From a virus, in UHGV virus genome UHGV-0120889: 64,000 nucleotides of DNA; one strand, given 5' to 3'. The position numbers and the translations under genes are program-made. Positions 6,584-16,106 of this stretch are shown here, piece after piece. Position 1 is the stretch's first letter. Each line of letters begins with the position of its first letter. A model generated the notes under the pieces. That model saw only the letters and a program-made list of their open reading frames with translations. It had not been told where the DNA came from and searched no databases.

Positions 6584-6899
6584 CGTTTATGTTCGGGCAA
6601 GGTCGCTAGTCTTGCCCCGCCATTTTCAGGCAGCTGCATGTCTCCATGCAGACCAGACTATATCTTATAAGCGACAACAACCGCTTATCCTCCCGTTTCG
6701 AATCGCTTGATTCTACGTCTTTCGACTAGTCGTTGAACGTTCATCCTCTCGGATGCTTCGCTGCGGATTATCTAAATTAACACACTGTTACCATACCTTC
6801 GATCTCTCTTCGAAGCCTCTATCATGTTACCATGACAGGTTGGTGGTATTAATAGTAAAGATTTCCCCGCAATTAGGGAGGTTTTACGAGAGCTACAAA
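6584..6899 (-). ncRNA. group I self-splicing intron (ORF-less) in terminase large subunit gene
   Basis: Minus-strand hallmarks in canonical order: exon ends GAGGGU then UAA; internal guide GCUCUC (plus 6888-6893) pairs with exon end; P-like AAUUGCGGGGAAA (plus 6863-6875); R-like GUUCAACGACUA (plus 6723-6738); S-like AAGAUAUAGUC (plus 6656-6666); terminal G at 6584. Confidence 0.7.
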
Positions 6900-6902
6900 T
6901 TA

Positions 6903-7328
6903 ACCCTCATCGAAGCAAACCATGGTGTACTCAAGCCCTTGATGGTTAAGCTTATCTTGTACATACTCCATGTGGCAGTATTTTACAACAGCTCCCTTTT
7001 TGCTTCTATCCCACTTGCCAGTGTTCGGATCAAACCGTGGAAAAATGAACTTATGATCCTTCTCTCTGAACTTTGGCTTAATGTTTTCAGGCAGATCACT
7101 ATAAATAGCTACCGCTTTAGGCCATAGTCCACCCTCACCTTCCAACTGCGGGGTTGTTCTTCGGAACATAACCACAGAGCTGTGGGGGTCATCAATAATT
7201 TTAAGTGGCATCAATTGCAAGAGGAACGACTTGCCAGACCCTGCGGCACCGCCGATTACCAAAATATCTGCATCGTTTTCGAGGATCATCTTCTGCTTTT
7301 CAGAACACGGTCCGTAAATCTTAGACAT
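6903..7328 (-). CDS. terminase large subunit, exon 1 (N-terminal ATPase: Walker A and B)
   Basis: Walker A VIGGAAGSGKSF and Walker B MVCFDEG; frame hits TAA (6900-6902) immediately after the Gly codon, which is the first codon of the intron. Confidence 0.75.
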
Positions 7329-8671: not shown

Positions 8672-8679
8672 AAAAAAGG

Positions 8680-8776
8680 TGCTAGGTGATGGAATCGAAC
8701 CACCTATGTATTCAACGACTACCTCGTCTATTTTCAGGATTAAAAATCCTCGCCCTTGCCAAAGGGCTTACCTAGC
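8680..8776 (-). tRNA. atypical long tRNA-like gene (about 97 nt), anticodon uncertain (candidate UUU) or pseudo-tRNA
   Basis: Perfect 7-bp acceptor GCUAGGU/ACCUAGC, D-arm GCCC-UUUGGCAA-GGGC and T-arm GGUGG-UUCGAUU-CCAUC, but about 30 extra nt between a short AGGA/UCCU stem (loop UUUUUAA) and the T-arm; no encoded CCA. Confidence 0.4.
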
Positions 8777-11127: not shown

Positions 11128-11634
11128 AGCTGCCTCCTCTTCAAGTTATAGAAAAACTCACTGTATCGCTTTGTAACGAGCTTTTCTATCAAACTGGTGC
11201 GATTGCCTTACCTGGTATAGTTTATATAGCTGTGGAGCGATTTAGGGGCCTTCTTGTCCGTTTCCACACATAAACTTCATCCAAGCTCGCGCGGGAGACT
11301 CTCAACCGACTCCTTACGGCGCTGGCAAGCTTTCGTCGGTGGTCCACATCAGTGCTCGGCCTTTGGCCTGCGCTATCGCTTCGCTCCCACACATGTTAAC
11401 AGACCTTCATGTATGCACTTCTGTTATTGTGTGCACCAAGGAGGCCCGGCATCTCGCCCCTCGTAGGCGAGTGCCAATGAAGGGCCGACACTACCTATAG
11501 TAAGTAATAAATTTAAAACATGGTACTTAGGATCTAGTATATTCTACATAAGTTAAGTATATGTACTTAGTACCATAAGTACTAGATCTTTTATTTTTTT
11601 TTTATTATTTAGTTATTTTAGTTATATTCTTTAT

Positions 11635-11717
11635 GTGTCCGTATCACGGACAGTTAGTGTCCGTATTACGGACAGATGTGTCCGCGTGACGGACAGTAGT
11701 GTCCGTATCACGGACAG
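11635..11717. repeat. array of four tandem palindromic 19-bp iterons GTGTCCG(T/C)NTNACGGACAG, period 21-22 bp, next to AT-rich tract 11589-11634
   Basis: Units start at 11635, 11657, 11678, 11699; each is an inverted repeat GTCCGT..ACGGAC. Direct observation. Confidence 0.85.
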
Positions 11718-11783
11718 TTACTAACCTCTGTTCCAGAGTGAACATAAAACATACGAATCCTTATAGTACAGATATTTAAGTTT

Positions 11784-12143
11784 TTACTGGTCTAACCAGT
11801 TGTTGACATTCGAATAACTTCTTCTGGTGGCAAAACTTTGGAAAATGTGCATCTTTTTACCTCTCCCTTGTGTGGATATTTCAACCACTCCTGCACATTC
11901 TAAAGTTTTAACGCACGCTGCTGCTTTTGTTTTCTTTATCCCAATATCTGCTGCAATTTTCCTTGTGCTGGGCGTGAAGCGTGAATTTCCTCCAAGCTTA
12001 TACCAGTTGTGCAGGTAGCAGTATACGATCTTGTCATATAAGTCAAGAACAACAACCTCACCAGTTGTGTCATTCAAAACTTTTGACATAGACAGTATTT
12101 CAAGGGGGACTTTAAGATATAGCAGCTTATCCCCATCTTTCAT
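11784..12143 (-). CDS. putative helix-turn-helix DNA-binding protein
   Basis: 119 aa; segment STRKIAADIGIKKTKAAACVKTLECAGVV resembles an HTH; gene ends 67 bp from the iteron array. Confidence 0.45.
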   Translation of the reverse strand: MKDGDKLLYLKVPLEILSMSKVLNDTTGEVVVLDLYDKIVYCYLHNWYKLGGNSRFTPSTRKIAADIGIKKTKAAACVKTLECAGVVEISTQGRGKKMHIFQSFATRRSYSNVNNWLDQ

Positions 12144-12190: not shown

Positions 12191-12745
12191 TTACTCCACG
12201 CTGTCAATAGCAAGACTCATTGCAATACGGTATGCCTCTTCTAATGGTAAGAGTCTCCCCCACACATCCCAACCGACATCAAACTGCCTGCCAAACAACT
12301 GCTGTGTGGTTCCGTGAGCATGACCGAACAGTTGGACCGATCCGTGAGGCTTTCTGTTCCACTTTGCAAACTGGTAATGGCTCATACAGATCAAATTCTT
12401 GTTGTGGCGAAGCTCGTAATAATCTACAACCTCATGACCGAACTCTTTCATAATTCTGACAGTCGTCCTTGTGTCATGGTTACCACGAACAAGAATAATA
12501 TGTCCGTTCAACATATTTAGAACATCTGGGAGCAATTTGTTAATATTCTTATCATTAGTGCACGCAATATCTCCTAAGTGAAACACAGTGTCTGCAGGTG
12601 ACACAACAGAGTTCCACTTGGTGATGATCCCCGCATTCATACTGTCAAGATTGTGATCATACTGAGATCTGTGTTTTTGACATGAGTCAAACTCCATGAC
12701 CCGCTGGTGGAGAAAGTGTGTGTCGCTTGTTACAAAGTATTTCAT
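12191..12745 (-). CDS. calcineurin-like metallophosphoesterase
   Basis: Motifs SDTHF, GDIACTND, GNHD, GHAHG; track ORF trimmed to ATG at 12743-12745 (MKYFVTSDTHF) to remove overlap with upstream kinase gene. Confidence 0.65.
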   Translation of the reverse strand: MKYFVTSDTHFLHQRVMEFDSCQKHRSQYDHNLDSMNAGIITKWNSVVSPADTVFHLGDIACTNDKNINKLLPDVLNMLNGHIILVRGNHDTRTTVRIMKEFGHEVVDYYELRHNKNLICMSHYQFAKWNRKPHGSVQLFGHAHGTTQQLFGRQFDVGWDVWGRLLPLEEAYRIAMSLAIDSVE

Positions 12746-12752
12746 ACATTCC

Positions 12753-13220
12753 TCATTTAAGTTTAATGCAGTTTTTAAGCTGGCGTTCCATACGATCCAC
12801 AACCCTGTCTGGAACATCATGAATGCTTTTACTACCATGGCGGTTTTCAACCACGATTACGGTATAACTATACCCATGACTGATCGCCATGTCAATATAT
12901 TCTTGCACATATTTTTCTTTTGTAAATGTATTACTTACCACGATACGGTCGTATCCCATACGCATCATATCTTCTACGTTATCTTTGCACCATTTTGCTG
13001 CAAGTGTTACTTTACTTGCATCCCAGTTGTAATTTCCATCATCGTCGTACCAGAACATGTCGTTCTCAAAATGTGGATACAGACCTTCTAAAGATAGCGC
13101 ACTTGCCAGTGTTGATTTGCCAGACCCTGGTAGACCACGCACGATATATAGCATTTTAGACATAGTAATCCTCCGTTTTAATTTCAACGATAGTATACCT
13201 AACTGTTTTGTTAATTTCAA
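12753..13220 (-). CDS. P-loop kinase (polynucleotide kinase-like)
   Basis: Walker A GLPGSGKST near N-terminus, 155 aa; operon partner of the metallophosphoesterase. Confidence 0.5.
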   Translation of the reverse strand: MKLTKQLGILSLKLKRRITMSKMLYIVRGLPGSGKSTLASALSLEGLYPHFENDMFWYDDDGNYNWDASKVTLAAKWCKDNVEDMMRMGYDRIVVSNTFTKEKYVQEYIDMAISHGYSYTVIVVENRHGSKSIHDVPDRVVDRMERQLKNCIKLK

Positions 13221-13263
13221 GTGTTGACACTAGGTTATTTGTGTGGCAGGATAGACTGACAAA

Positions 13264-14199
13264 ATGACAAATGAGGAACGTATGATGAAGTATTTTAATG
13301 CAGACGACCTAGTTGACAAAGGTCTTGTAACCAGCAGATATCACCCAGACCTTGGGTTAAAGATCTATAAATATGCCAGAAAAGTATTCTACAACAACTT
13401 ATGGCATTTGTCTCCTCGATTACTGGAGTGCCGAGGCATTGTTGTCGGTAATGAAGGAAATGTTGTGGCATGGCCCTTTACAAAAGTGTTTAACTTGGGA
13501 GAAAACTCCACCAACCTGCCTGACAATAAGCTTGTGACGGCGGTAGAGAAAAAGAACGGATTCCTTGGTGTGGTGTCATCTCATAAAGGTGAACTATTGT
13601 TCTCAACAACCGGGTCTCTTGATTCTCCATATTGTAACCTTGCAAAGGAAACCATCCAGGAGCAATGTGGTAATTTAGATCTTATCAAGAAGGTTATGGG
13701 CAATGAAAATATGACATTCATGTTTGAAATTTGTCACCCATCAGATCCGCATATTGTTCAGGAAGATCATGGCGCATATTTGATAGGTTGCAGATATAAT
13801 GATTCTGGAATAATGCTACCAGAAGCAGCTTTAGATTGGATTGCCAAATACCTTGGTGCAAAACGTCCTCACACTGTGCGTGAAATTCCGTTCAGTTATG
13901 CAAAAGAATTAGCTGCAGAAACAAGAGGTGAAGGGTATATGATTCGTAAGCCTTACTACCCTTATGATCTGCAGCTGAAGATTAAGTCTCCATACTATCT
14001 GGCACAGAAGGCCGTAATGAGGGGTAAAGCTTGGAAGATTTGGGATGATGATATCTTTAAACGTGTTGACGAAGAGTTTTACGGCATGGTAAACTTCATT
14101 CGTAACAACTACACAGAGGATGTATGGAACTGCCTCCTGGAGCAGGAACGCCGTGAGATACTCGATTACTATTTCCACAACGAGAACTATATGCAATGA
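13264..14199 (+). CDS. putative RNA ligase / covalent nucleotidyltransferase
   Basis: Motif-I-like VEKKNGFLGVV (KxNG); divergently transcribed from the kinase/phosphoesterase pair. RNA versus DNA ligase not resolvable by eye. Confidence 0.5.
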   Translation: MTNEERMMKYFNADDLVDKGLVTSRYHPDLGLKIYKYARKVFYNNLWHLSPRLLECRGIVVGNEGNVVAWPFTKVFNLGENSTNLPDNKLVTAVEKKNGFLGVVSSHKGELLFSTTGSLDSPYCNLAKETIQEQCGNLDLIKKVMGNENMTFMFEICHPSDPHIVQEDHGAYLIGCRYNDSGIMLPEAALDWIAKYLGAKRPHTVREIPFSYAKELAAETRGEGYMIRKPYYPYDLQLKIKSPYYLAQKAVMRGKAWKIWDDDIFKRVDEEFYGMVNFIRNNYTEDVWNCLLEQERREILDYYFHNENYMQ

Positions 14200-14546
14200 A
14201 GAAGTTGATTGTGTGGCTAGATGACTTGAGAGATCCGTCAAAGTACGGGCTCCAAGACGCTGTTTGGCTAAAGAATTCCTCCGAGTTTATAGATTTTATT
14301 AACGATAATAGAAAGCTCTACAGACGCGTTTCTGAGTGGCATATGGACAACGACCTTGGAGAGGTATTCGAAGGGTACGATTGCCTATCTATGTTGGAGG
14401 AAAAATTTGTATTTGGTAAGCCTCCTGTAGTTGACAACGTGAAGATTTTCGTGCATACTTCTAACCCATCAGCGGCTCGTAAATTCATGCTTGCAGCTGA
14501 CTCGTTTAAAAAGTTTGGAATAGAGATTAAACAAAACATCTACTGA
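14196..14546 (+). CDS. hypothetical protein
   Basis: 116 aa ORF, start overlapping ligase-like stop (ATGA), immediately upstream of the sirtuin-like gene. Confidence 0.4.
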   Translation: MKKLIVWLDDLRDPSKYGLQDAVWLKNSSEFIDFINDNRKLYRRVSEWHMDNDLGEVFEGYDCLSMLEEKFVFGKPPVVDNVKIFVHTSNPSAARKFMLAADSFKKFGIEIKQNIY

Positions 14547-14554
14547 GGACACTT

Positions 14555-15316
14555 ATGCGACGACTGATTATTATCTCCGGTGCTGGTTTGAGCGCTGAAT
14601 CTGGTATTCCCACTTTCCGATCTGGTAGCACTGCAATGTGGGAGAATTTCAGCATCGATGAGGTGTGCAACATCCACACCTTTGCCAAGAACTACTATAA
14701 GGTGCATGACTTTTACAATGCACGTCGTGTAGCTTTAGGCAGTGTTGAGCCTAACCTTGCACATCTTCGGATCGCTGAGTGGTATTCCCGCTGGTCTGGT
14801 CGTGTGATCAACCTTACCACCAATGTAGATGATTTGCTGGAGCGTGCTGGTGTAAAACATGAAGATATTTTACATGTCCACGGGTATTTGCCAGAAATAG
14901 TCTATGAGGACGATGAAGGAAGTGACGTCATTAAGGACATTGGATACTCTGAGGTAGACGCAGGAAAGTATACCTGGGTTAAGCCTAATGTGGTGTTCTT
15001 CGGAGAAGTAGCTCCGAAGTATACAGACATGTATGACCTGTTGACTTCTCTTACGAGCAATGATATGGTTATCCTTGTAGGGTGCTCCAACACAGTTATC
15101 AATTTTAACTGGGAGCTATTCCCTGCCTGCAATAAGGGAACCAAACTACTGATCGTTAATAAATACGACTCACAGCATCTAGAGGAGAATGGCATTTCAC
15201 GTAGTGATATTTACCAGTATGAGGATCGTGGCATCCCAGTTTGGTTTAACGGTGCGGTTGATGCCTTCTCTGATAAAACATTCATTGAGACTGTAGAAAA
15301 CTTTATGGAACTTTAA
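14555..15316 (+). CDS. Sir2 (sirtuin) family NAD-dependent protein
   Basis: N-terminal GAGLSAESGIPTFRS matches the sirtuin NAD-binding signature GAGIS..SGIP.FR; 253 aa. Confidence 0.7.
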   Translation: MRRLIIISGAGLSAESGIPTFRSGSTAMWENFSIDEVCNIHTFAKNYYKVHDFYNARRVALGSVEPNLAHLRIAEWYSRWSGRVINLTTNVDDLLERAGVKHEDILHVHGYLPEIVYEDDEGSDVIKDIGYSEVDAGKYTWVKPNVVFFGEVAPKYTDMYDLLTSLTSNDMVILVGCSNTVINFNWELFPACNKGTKLLIVNKYDSQHLEENGISRSDIYQYEDRGIPVWFNGAVDAFSDKTFIETVENFMEL

Positions 15317-15329
15317 AAGGAGACCTTTA

Positions 15330-16043
15330 ATGCTGAATACTAAATTAATTGACAACCTGGAAAAACTATCCCAACCTGAAAACTACCTTTGGTCTGCCAA
15401 CTGGGTGGAAAACTGGAACCGTGTGGCAGCTAAAGTGAAAAAATCATACACACCATTCGAATTACAGCTTAGCTTCATTAAGGAAGAGTTCAATGAAGTT
15501 TTGGAAGAGCTGGAGAAAGGTGATGGTGGAGATCACCTGCTAAAGGAGGCCTGCGATCTTCACGTTGTCACAAGTTATGCAGCTTATCTTGTTAATGACA
15601 ATCACGAAAAGTGGTCAAACCTGTTTGATAATCCACGAGGTCTTAAGTTCAAGATCGGTGAGTTCTATGACACACTGATCGCTGCGAAAAACACATCCAA
15701 GCAAAGAGCGTCAGCTTACCGTTTAGCGGAGTTGTCAACAGCTTTGCTGTTCCAGCTTCGCGGCGATGTGTGCGGGATGATGCGTAAGGTTCTCAAATCG
15801 AATGACAGCAAGTTTGCACGGGTCAACCATCTACGGTATTCACACGGTGCCAGTGCAGATATGCCTGCTGAACAACTCATAGAGTTGGAGATTAAAGATC
15901 TTGAGCGACGCTTTGATGGTCGATATGAAGGTTTTGTTGCTAAGGAAGAATTCTACAACGGTAATAAAGTTATCATATTCCTTGACAGTAAAGGTAAGAT
16001 CATGAAGCCTTCGAGCTTCAAGGATGTAGCAGAGTATATTTAA
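15330..16043 (+). CDS. hypothetical protein (possible MazG-like NTP pyrophosphohydrolase)
   Basis: Acidic motif FIKEEFNEVLEELEKGDGGDHLLKEACDL resembles MazG EExxE..E..D; weak. Confidence 0.35.
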   Translation: MLNTKLIDNLEKLSQPENYLWSANWVENWNRVAAKVKKSYTPFELQLSFIKEEFNEVLEELEKGDGGDHLLKEACDLHVVTSYAAYLVNDNHEKWSNLFDNPRGLKFKIGEFYDTLIAAKNTSKQRASAYRLAELSTALLFQLRGDVCGMMRKVLKSNDSKFARVNHLRYSHGASADMPAEQLIELEIKDLERRFDGRYEGFVAKEEFYNGNKVIIFLDSKGKIMKPSSFKDVAEYI

Positions 16044-16106
16044 CAACATGGCCGGGATTACCCGGCTTTACTTGTTGTGGAAAGTATGCAAGTGAGGCAG
16101 ATAGTT

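Follow-up and report, generated by a model that had tools for sequence, protein, structure and literature searches.

The window analyzed here is a stretch of 64,000 nucleotides from UHGV virus genome UHGV-0120889, and it carries a divergently transcribed cassette of RNA-repair-like genes. The cassette comprises a metallophosphoesterase of 184 amino acids (aa; 12191..12745, minus strand), a P-loop kinase of the AAA_33 family (136 aa; 12753..13163, minus strand) and, across a divergent intergenic region that runs from kinase start to ligase start (13164..13281), a predicted ATP-dependent RNA ligase of the Rnl1/Trl1 structural group (305 aa; 13282..14199, plus strand). The phosphoesterase is a stand-alone, predicted binuclear enzyme of PHROG 547 and of an aq_1665-like clade. 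The 4.4 kb around the cassette shares 99.6% identity with Escherichia phages rV5_ev147 and slur16, and it matches 122 phage records, nearly all from rV5-like Vequintavirinae. On the basis of these matches we assign the window to an rV5-like coliphage, a Vequintavirus.

The ligase gene lies head-to-head with the kinase and phosphoesterase pair across a gap of ~100-118 bp, which confirms the arrangement described in an earlier reading of the letters alone (the original prediction). Shine-Dalgarno sequences are visible for both the kinase and the ligase. The kinase open reading frame (ORF; 12753..13220, minus strand) has its likely start at ATG 13163, with GGAGGA 6 nt upstream, and the ligase ORF (13264..14199, plus strand) has a probable start at ATG 13282 after GAGGAA, as annotated in curated relatives. 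The phosphoesterase ORF (12191..12850, minus strand) most likely starts at ATG 12745, as in its homologs. The kinase gene is only 7 nt upstream of the phosphoesterase gene, and the two therefore probably form one operon. We detected a promoter-like TTGAAA-17-TATACT sequence upstream of the kinase, inside the intergenic region (13220..13192, minus strand), and no convincing sigma-70 match on the ligase side of that region. The three core genes were assigned to PHROG families at 1e-51 to 1e-66. No NCBIfam model scored above cutoff for the kinase, phosphoesterase or ligase, and the PADLOC defense models gave weak P-loop matches only. In annotated relatives, the genes of this region are named “polynucleotide kinase” or “ATPase,” “phosphoesterase,” “RNA ligase,” “hypothetical protein,” “sirtuin/Sir2” and “nucleotide pyrophosphohydrolase.”

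The original prediction identified the plus-strand ORF as ligase-like from a KxNG motif I, and this motif is present in a protein that belongs to Pfam family PF09511 (RNA_lig_T4_1; 55.7 bits vs. a cutoff of 28.3, E = 8.3e-15, residues 55-245). A database search returned 1,678 relatives of the ligase. In an alignment of 29 sequences with 42-49% identity to the query, motif I (K96-K-N98-G99, or KKNG) and motif Ia (T115-T116-G117) are invariant, as are R57, K74, F76, F154-E155 (motif III), E223-G224 (motif IV) and K239-x-K241 (motif V). Motifs I, Ia, III, IV and V are thus all kept, which disposes of the concern that the remaining nucleotidyltransferase motifs might be missing. Searched as a single sequence against solved structures, the ligase gave one weak, insignificant match, and a family profile was required. 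That profile finds T4 Rnl1 (2C5U) at 1.9e-13, and the alignment brings motifs I, IV and V into register. In detail, R57, K74, F76, K96, G99, E155, E223-G224, K239 and K241 of the ligase pair with R54, K75, F77, K99, G102, E159, E227-G228, K240 and K242 of T4 Rnl1 (the numbering of the 2C5U chain is offset by one). Mutagenesis in the Shuman laboratory reportedly showed the aligned T4 residues to be essential.

The only systematic motif difference from T4 Rnl1 is the replacement of Asp by Asn in motif I, and KxNG is the motif I of the fungal Trl1 ligases (PMC10946426). An AlphaFold (AF2) model of the ligase has a predicted local distance difference test (pLDDT) value of 91.5. In a Foldseek search with this model, the best solved-structure matches were all RNA ligases, namely Trl1-LIG, archaeal Rnl3 and T4 Rnl1, with E-values of ~1e-11 to 1e-12. 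The top match was 9QW7, the Trl1 ligase domain (E = 2.9e-12, template modeling score of about 0.6). The last ~65 residues of the ligase form a short, helical, family-specific C-terminal domain with invariant DEE and RR motifs, the latter being the pair R296-R297 in the C-terminal helices. In Chaetomium Trl1, an arginine pair (R334/R337) underlies the need for a 3′-terminal 2′-phosphate. Pfam and PHROG searches revealed no polynucleotide kinase fused to the ligase and no 2H cyclic phosphodiesterase domain anywhere in the cassette. Judged from its profile matches and modeled fold, the product of 13282..14199 is an Rnl1/Trl1-type RNA ligase.

We rejected an assignment of the ligase as the T4 RnlA ortholog. 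It scored 39 bits against the T4 RnlA equivalog model TIGR02308 (cutoff of 242), and the profile alignment to 2C5U ends at about T4 residue 249 of 374. It thus covers the catalytic domain only, and the T4 C-terminal tRNA-specificity domain is absent. The same observations bear on the possibility that the protein is chiefly a catalyst of tail fiber attachment, the second function of T4 gp63, with the kinase and phosphoesterase as unrelated neighbors. Many GenBank records do carry the name “RNA ligase and tail fiber attachment protein,” and the category given for PHROG 562 is “tail.” However, the name is inherited from T4, the alignment to T4 Rnl1 is confined to the catalytic domain, and the gene is tightly coupled to the kinase among early or nucleotide-metabolism genes. 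Moreover, the only experimental evidence that we found comes from transposon sequencing (HIDEN-SEQ) of Bas54, a Vequintavirus whose genes are in the same order as here and of identical length. The Bas54 ligase ortholog has a mean insertion count of 192, unlike the N-terminal domain of T4 rnlA, which was intolerant to insertions in the same study. As the rV5-type ligase tolerates insertions, it should have no essential morphogenetic role, which counts against the tail fiber label. We consider this explanation highly improbable.

The minus-strand kinase carries the Walker A sequence GLPGSGKST reported in the original prediction, within RGLPGSGKST at residues 9-18 (counted from ATG 13163). It matches Pfam AAA_33 at 2.4e-10, above the gathering cutoff, and among the PHROGs it matches phrog_2071 (1.6e-57) and phrog_505, “polynucleotide kinase” (6.8e-10). 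The kinase is a member of a very large family of stand-alone “predicted kinases” of ~130 aa, for which we found at least 7,989 matches. Across 30 sequences, the Walker A motif GxxGxGKST and D35 are invariant. Other invariant or near-invariant features are R9, E33-x-D35, S77-N78-T79 and E106-N107-R108-H109-G110, the last of which is a lid-like region outside the T4 alignment.

As for the ligase, a search of solved structures with the single kinase sequence gave one weak, insignificant match, and the family profile was required. With this profile, D35 aligns with the catalytic D35 of T4 Pnk (1LY1). The best full-length solved relatives are Capnocytophaga Pnkp1 (4XRP, 6e-6) and T4 Pnk (1LY1/1LTQ, 6e-6 to 1e-5), followed by PSTK (5e-5) and CthPnk (4GP7, 2e-4), with the remaining kinases at 1e-3 or worse; these E-values are modest. 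The window kinase also matches the N-terminal kinase part of a 296-aa “polynucleotide kinase” of Streptomyces phage Genie2 (2e-8), which adjoins the gene for a related ligase. From these relationships, we propose that the protein is an RNA 5′-OH polynucleotide kinase.

The motifs DxH, GD, GNHD and GHxH that had been read in the minus-strand phosphoesterase are all present. The corresponding two-metal ligands (D8-x-H10, G58-D59, G88-N89-H90-D91, H123 and G141-H142-x-H144) form a complete set that is invariant in 32 homologs. Pfam matches to Metallophos_2 (1.7e-6) and Metallophos (4.1e-6) are both above the gathering cutoffs, and the structural model is confident. The closest solved relative by far is Aquifex aeolicus aq_1665 (1XM7; profile E = 2.4e-26), after which the profile ranking lists GpdQ, PptH, the metallophosphoesterase (MPE) nuclease, MJ0936, YfcE and Rv0805. 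When we tabulated relatives, aq_1665 again led (17.5), ahead of LpxH (11.4), YfcE (10.4), MJ0936 (10.4), the MPE nuclease (10.3) and lambda phosphatase (9.5), with the CthPnkp phosphatase domain at rank 47 (7.0). No Ser/Thr phosphatase, lambda phosphatase or CthPnkp phosphatase appeared in the profile search at E ≤ 1.

An alignment to Ser/Thr protein phosphatases, which the original prediction had regarded as adverse to its reading, was therefore not what the profile search returned. That test was somewhat misconceived, because the only metallophosphoesterase known to heal RNA 3′ ends is itself lambda-phosphatase-like (PMC2190708). We rejected membership of the PPP Ser/Thr protein phosphatases (an affinity to PP1, calcineurin or lambda phosphatase) and of the Cth-type Pnkp phosphatase clade, whose members are lambda-phosphatase-like, fused between kinase and ligase and partnered by Hen1. 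By sequence, the phosphoesterase is placed in the uncharacterized aq_1665 clade, not in the clade of bacterial Pnkp. Its likeness to the Pnkp phosphatase lies in the proposed role only, and a substrate cannot be read from its relatives. The protein aq_1665 is a structural-genomics metallophosphoesterase without assigned function, so the match to it is uninformative on substrate. We propose that the phosphoesterase is a 3′-end healing enzyme, acting as a 2′,3′-cyclic phosphodiesterase and/or a 3′/2′-phosphomonoesterase. The description of a metallophosphoesterase as a less usual 3′-healing partner needs some qualification, given the precedent in bacterial Pnkp, though from a different clade. 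We also noted that a C-terminal DHH motif conserved in most members of the family is absent from the rV5-type protein, which ends ...AIDSVE.

On the plus strand, the ligase stop overlaps by 4 bp the start of a gene for a protein with a cREC (cyclic-phosphate-processing receiver-like) domain (116 aa; 14196..14546; PF20274 cREC_REC, 4.5e-15). In Proteus phage Mydo, a protein with 61% identity to it is encoded between the ligase and kinase genes. The cREC domain, as defined by Iyer et al. (2021; PMC7824862), is predicted to process cyclic phosphates and has links to RNA ligases and to enzymes that use nicotinamide adenine dinucleotide (NAD+); it is experimentally uncharacterized according to Iyer et al. 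(2022; PMC9503650). We predict that the window protein is an esterase of cyclic phosphates or of ADP-ribose cyclic phosphate.

Next in the row is a Sir2-family protein (253 aa; 14555..15316, plus strand; PF02146, 3e-27; phrog_2162, 9e-110). It retains the NAD-binding GAGxSxxSGIPxFR sequence and the catalytic HG (LHVHG). There is no CxxC...CxxC zinc module after the HG, and the only cysteines are C38, C187 and C202; on this account it belongs to a distinct zinc-less sirtuin clade. A candidate MazG-like nucleotide pyrophosphohydrolase follows (237 aa; 15330..16043, plus strand), which matched phrog_671, “nucleotide pyrophosphohydrolase,” at 3.6e-22 and had no Pfam match. Immediately after it, at 16050..16067, is a terminator-like GC-rich hairpin of 7 pairs, 6 of them G-C, which was found as a consensus match and reported on both strands. 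The total number of terminator-like sites in the region was not above shuffle expectation. Ligase, cREC, sirtuin and MazG-like genes thus apparently make up one plus-strand unit that is closed by the hairpin and reaches ~16067. The original prediction was right about the identities of its three genes, but it drew the boundary too narrowly and missed the cREC, sirtuin and MazG-like genes.

This gene set has been described before. Iyer, Burroughs, Anantharaman and Aravind (2022) defined a predicted “type 2” sirtuin-centered, NAD+-utilizing RNA-repair neighborhood with Escherichia phage V5 and Proteus phage Mydo as prototypes (PMC9503650, section 3.7.3). Its members are a sirtuin, a T4-like ligase, cREC, a nucleotide kinase and MazG, and in some cases a calcineurin-like phosphoesterase (PMC9503650). 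All six genes of this V5/Mydo-type neighborhood are present in the window, from 12191 to 16043. In the same work, the sirtuin was proposed to act like KptA/Tpt1, removing RNA 2′-phosphates with NAD+ (PMC9503650, section 3.7.3).

To evaluate the association among the core genes, we examined six independent loci reached via divergent ligase homologs (43-47% identity). In all six, the phosphoesterase, ligase and kinase genes lie within a few kb and are usually adjacent. The phosphoesterase homologs share 29-49% and the kinase homologs 40-48% identity with those of the window, and all three genes share one strand. Most often the phosphoesterase comes first, then the ligase and the kinase, with genes that overlap or abut. 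Phage Mydo, from another genus of Vequintavirinae, has the same gene set as the window with 35-61% protein identity. There, the phosphoesterase gene is followed in the same direction by two small genes, then by ligase, cREC and kinase and, after a further small gene, by Sir2 and DNA ligase. Relative to this order, the head-to-head layout of the window is a Vequintavirus-specific inversion of the kinase and phosphoesterase pair, and not a design feature. In Vibrio phage Chazly21 (T5-like, Demerecviridae), the ligase and kinase are followed by the phosphoesterase two genes on. Two more phage contigs (L012 and L013) have the kinase directly followed by a PHROG-547 phosphoesterase, with no recognizable ligase adjacent. 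The 414-aa and 417-aa proteins encoded downstream of these pairs were checked as possible divergent ligases and had no significant Pfam match, and the one that was compared with the PHROGs had no match there.

We counted homologs at E ≤ 1e-10 across 50,697 phage records. The ligase was detected in 683 and the kinase in 618, with almost identical counts by genus (ligase and kinase, respectively): Escherichia (199 and 198), Pseudomonas (175 and 173), Vibrio (83 and 89), Klebsiella (36 and 36), Acinetobacter (24 and 24), Campylobacter (23 and 23), Salmonella (14 and 14), Aeromonas (13 and 13) and Cronobacter (7 and 7). The main exception is the Streptomyces phages, in which the ligase occurs in 70 records and is paired with a T4-type Pnkp; these distant ligase relatives adjoin the Pnkp inside a tRNA island. 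The phosphoesterase is more widespread, with 1,101 records, many of them from phages of Vibrio, Enterococcus, Listeria and Bacillus. Ligase and kinase are thus obligate partners and the phosphoesterase is a frequent third member. The trio is a widespread core that occurs without Sir2 or cREC in other lineages. A functional link among the three genes is supported both by this conserved clustering and by the agreement of their phyletic distributions. As a side observation, 18-23 records per search are named “Campylobacter phage” with C. jejuni as host, one of which has 97.5% DNA identity to the window phage. These records appear to carry the whole cassette and look like rV5-like coliphages under another host name.

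In several Pseudomonas, Erwinia, Proteus and Vibrio phage loci (L002, L006, L007, L008, L015 and L016), the repair genes are within a few kb of genes for a Prs-like ribose-phosphate pyrophosphokinase and NAPRTase/NAMPT-like proteins. Some of these loci also have a Macro-domain gene or an Rnl2 ligase gene close by. Pairing of Prs-like and NAPRTase/NAMPT genes resembles phage NAD+-reconstitution pathways, which suggests a recurrent anti-defense island that joins RNA repair and NAD+ salvage.

Such neighbors also raise the main rival explanation, in which the kinase and phosphoesterase (with Sir2, cREC and MazG) mainly process small nucleotides or molecules derived from NAD+ or ADP-ribose, and the ligase is only loosely co-located in an anti-defense or nucleotide-metabolism island. 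Possible substrates would include host immune signals, ADP-ribose cyclic phosphates and nicotinamide riboside. Besides the NAD+-salvage genes that adjoin cassette relatives in at least six lineages, this explanation draws on the closest characterized relatives of the phosphoesterase, which are small-molecule diesterases, on the wider distribution of the phosphoesterase than of the ligase, and on the definition of cREC by its association with NAD+ and ADP-ribose enzymes. The kinase profile even matches nicotinamide riboside kinase weakly (E of about 0.02-0.03), but polynucleotide and tRNA kinases match three to four orders of magnitude better than nucleoside kinases. Furthermore, in most lineages the kinase gene overlaps or abuts the ligase gene, the phyletic profiles of the two match, and the kinase resembles the kinase half of a Pnkp that adjoins a related ligase. 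We regard this explanation as unlikely, and the tail fiber explanation as less likely again.

A DNA ligase gene is located 2.5 kb downstream in the window, and we considered whether the kinase and phosphoesterase could clean DNA ends (5′-OH and 3′-phosphate) for this ATP-dependent enzyme, as in ligase-associated MPE DNA-repair operons. However, the score against TIGR04123 was 20.6 bits, far under the cutoff of 150. The conserved partner is the Rnl1-type RNA ligase, whose fold group is RNA-specific, and the position of the DNA ligase varies among lineages. This explanation is quite improbable, and less likely than the processing of small molecules.

From the family and fold assignments, the conserved residues, the clustering and the co-distribution of ligase and kinase, we infer a series of catalytic steps, with tRNA as substrate and an anti-defense role. 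It is likely that the cassette is a phage RNA break-repair system of separate small proteins, which heal and seal broken ends and most likely mend cut tRNAs. The P-loop kinase would phosphorylate the 5′-OH. The metallophosphoesterase, probably helped or replaced by cREC, would open and remove the cyclic or terminal phosphate. The Rnl1/Trl1-like ligase, adenylylated on Lys96, would then join the 3′-OH to the 5′-PO4. In rV5-like phages, the cREC protein, the zinc-less sirtuin and the MazG-like hydrolase are added to this core and may handle 2′-phosphate or ADP-ribose by-products. The repair reading is supported by a cluster of seven tRNA genes at a distance of 3-4 kb, one of them for an unusual tRNA-Lys(UUU). 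On E. coli K-12, transposon insertions are tolerated in the Bas54 orthologs of the sirtuin, cREC, ligase, kinase and phosphoesterase genes alike (mean counts of 88 to 406), as expected of an anti-defense accessory on a laboratory host. The frequent NAD+-salvage neighbors of the relatives are also consistent with repair.

Several observations weigh against it. The kinase lacks an arginine at the position of Arg38 in T4 Pnk, three residues after D35, where the window protein has W and the family F or Y. Arg38 and Arg126 of T4 Pnk bind the phosphate acceptor and are essential. The phosphoesterase is common in phages without the ligase, and its more distant homologs have no RNA ligase nearby. The NAD+-salvage neighbors would also fit a nucleotide- or NAD-centered role. 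In the host comparison that we examined, none of the five Bas54 genes was depleted (log2 fold changes of +0.13 to +0.43). Our literature search found no assay of any member of the ligase clade, the 130-aa kinase family or the aq_1665-like phosphoesterase clade, no biochemistry for any cassette component and no biochemical or genetic study that characterizes the cassette.

A more specific version, to which we give a rather low probability, is that the cassette does in phages what the Trl1-Tpt1 pathway does in fungi and plants, with unrelated parts. In this scheme, cREC and/or the metallophosphoesterase would open the 2′,3′-cyclic phosphate to give 3′-OH,2′-PO4 ends, and the KxNG ligase would seal these ends as Trl1 does. 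The zinc-less sirtuin, in place of Tpt1/KptA, would strip the junction 2′-phosphate with NAD+, which would leave ADP-ribose cyclic phosphate as a by-product for the MazG-like enzyme or the phosphoesterase to remove. The tie between the published sirtuin proposal (Iyer et al., 2022) and the Trl1-like ligase motif is our own suggestion, drawn by analogy. As the KxNG ligase is also found in lineages without a neighboring sirtuin, a strict dependence on the sirtuin seems doubtful, and our evidence does not much raise the probability of the scheme. A sirtuin that substitutes for Tpt1 on RNA 2′-phosphates in a Trl1-like pathway would be notable, if true.

We also noticed features near the cassette. 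A tRNA of 97-99 nt at 8678..8776 (minus strand) was assigned a four-base anticodon, “atcc,” by ARAGORN. By contrast, the anticodon loop is UUUUUAA, with anticodon UUU (Lys), in both the Rfam tRNA model (35.5 bits) and the minimum-free-energy fold, and in one curated relative the tRNA is named tRNA-Lys. An insertion of about 26-30 nt forms a hairpin at the variable-arm position. The idea that this odd 99-nt tRNA is a conventional intron-bearing splicing substrate of the ligase was rejected, since the extra ~26-30 nt are in the variable-arm position and outside the anticodon loop. tRNA-Lys(UUU) is the target of PrrC and PARIS, and the window tRNA could complement the repair cassette as a nuclease-evading replacement.

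Further away, a group I intron was identified at 6634..6912 (minus strand; Rfam RF00028, 84.3 bits, E = 5.5e-20). It lies between two pieces of the slur16 “terminase large subunit” coding sequence (CDS), so the terminase gene appears to be interrupted by a self-splicing intron. The ~660 bp at 11130..11790 have no CDS in slur16 and contain only short arginine-rich ORFs on both strands, where RudolfGeigy is annotated with three tiny CDS; nothing in Rfam matched this region at the gathering threshold. The gene at 11784..12143 (minus strand), next to the phosphoesterase, is annotated as a “replication initiation protein” or “transcriptional regulator” (HTH_36, DUF6945). Its Bas54 ortholog, bas54_0212, has a mean of 13.6 insertions, unlike the repair genes, so this gene may be important for growth.

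The cassette is already known, being annotated in >100 public genomes and published with the same interpretation. The V5-type neighborhood of Iyer et al. (2022) is the same locus in the same phage group, with no difference in content, and its description is purely computational. As the result of a genome scan, the locus therefore adds little, since the genes were annotated and the neighborhood had been published as a prediction. Our additions are modest: the recognition of the trio as the core, the placement of the phosphoesterase in the aq_1665 clade, the KxNG motif and separate C-terminal domain of the ligase, and the divergent layout as a local rearrangement. tRNA-cutting nucleases are common anti-phage effectors. 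To our knowledge, T4 Pnkp/Rnl1 is essentially the only phage repair pathway with experimental support. The cassette would represent a widespread second design, made of small separate enzymes and carried by sequenced phages of Escherichia, Klebsiella, Pseudomonas, Vibrio and Acinetobacter that number several hundred. At stake are functions for the aq_1665 phosphoesterase clade, for the 130-aa kinase family with its thousands of uncharacterized members and for the attached sirtuin, as well as the host defenses that the cassette would counter.

Among the known systems, T4 Pnkp (PseT) and RNA ligase 1 (RnlA), which counter the anticodon nuclease PrrC, follow the same logic of a 5′ kinase, 3′ healing and an Rnl1-family ligase. 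The catalytic domains of the ligases are homologous (profile E = 1.9e-13), and the kinase is distantly related to the T4 Pnk kinase domain (E = 6e-6). However, the T4 kinase is fused to its phosphatase, a HAD/DxDxT domain, whereas the cassette uses a separate metallophosphoesterase. T4 Rnl1 has KxDG and a C-terminal tRNA-binding domain, whereas the cassette ligase has KxNG and lacks that domain. The bacterial Pnkp (Clostridium thermocellum Pnkp/Hen1; PMC2190708) combines the same three chemistries: a P-loop 5′ kinase, a binuclear metallophosphoesterase that acts on 2′,3′-cyclic or 3′-phosphate, and an adenylyltransferase ligase.

The fungal and plant Trl1 with the 2′-phosphotransferase Tpt1 shares motif I (KxNG) with the cassette ligase (PMC10946426) and provides an equally good structural match (Foldseek E = 3e-12). 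The Trl1-Tpt1 pathway likewise needs a kinase and a cyclic phosphodiesterase, and the cassette has a gene for an NAD+-using enzyme as its neighbor. Trl1 is a fusion of the ligase with the kinase and a 2H-type cyclic phosphodiesterase, whereas the cassette encodes separate proteins, with the metallophosphoesterase and cREC as the proposed esterases. Finally, the NAD+ enzyme of the Trl1 pathway is Tpt1/KptA, with an ADP-ribosyltransferase fold, and that of the cassette is a sirtuin.

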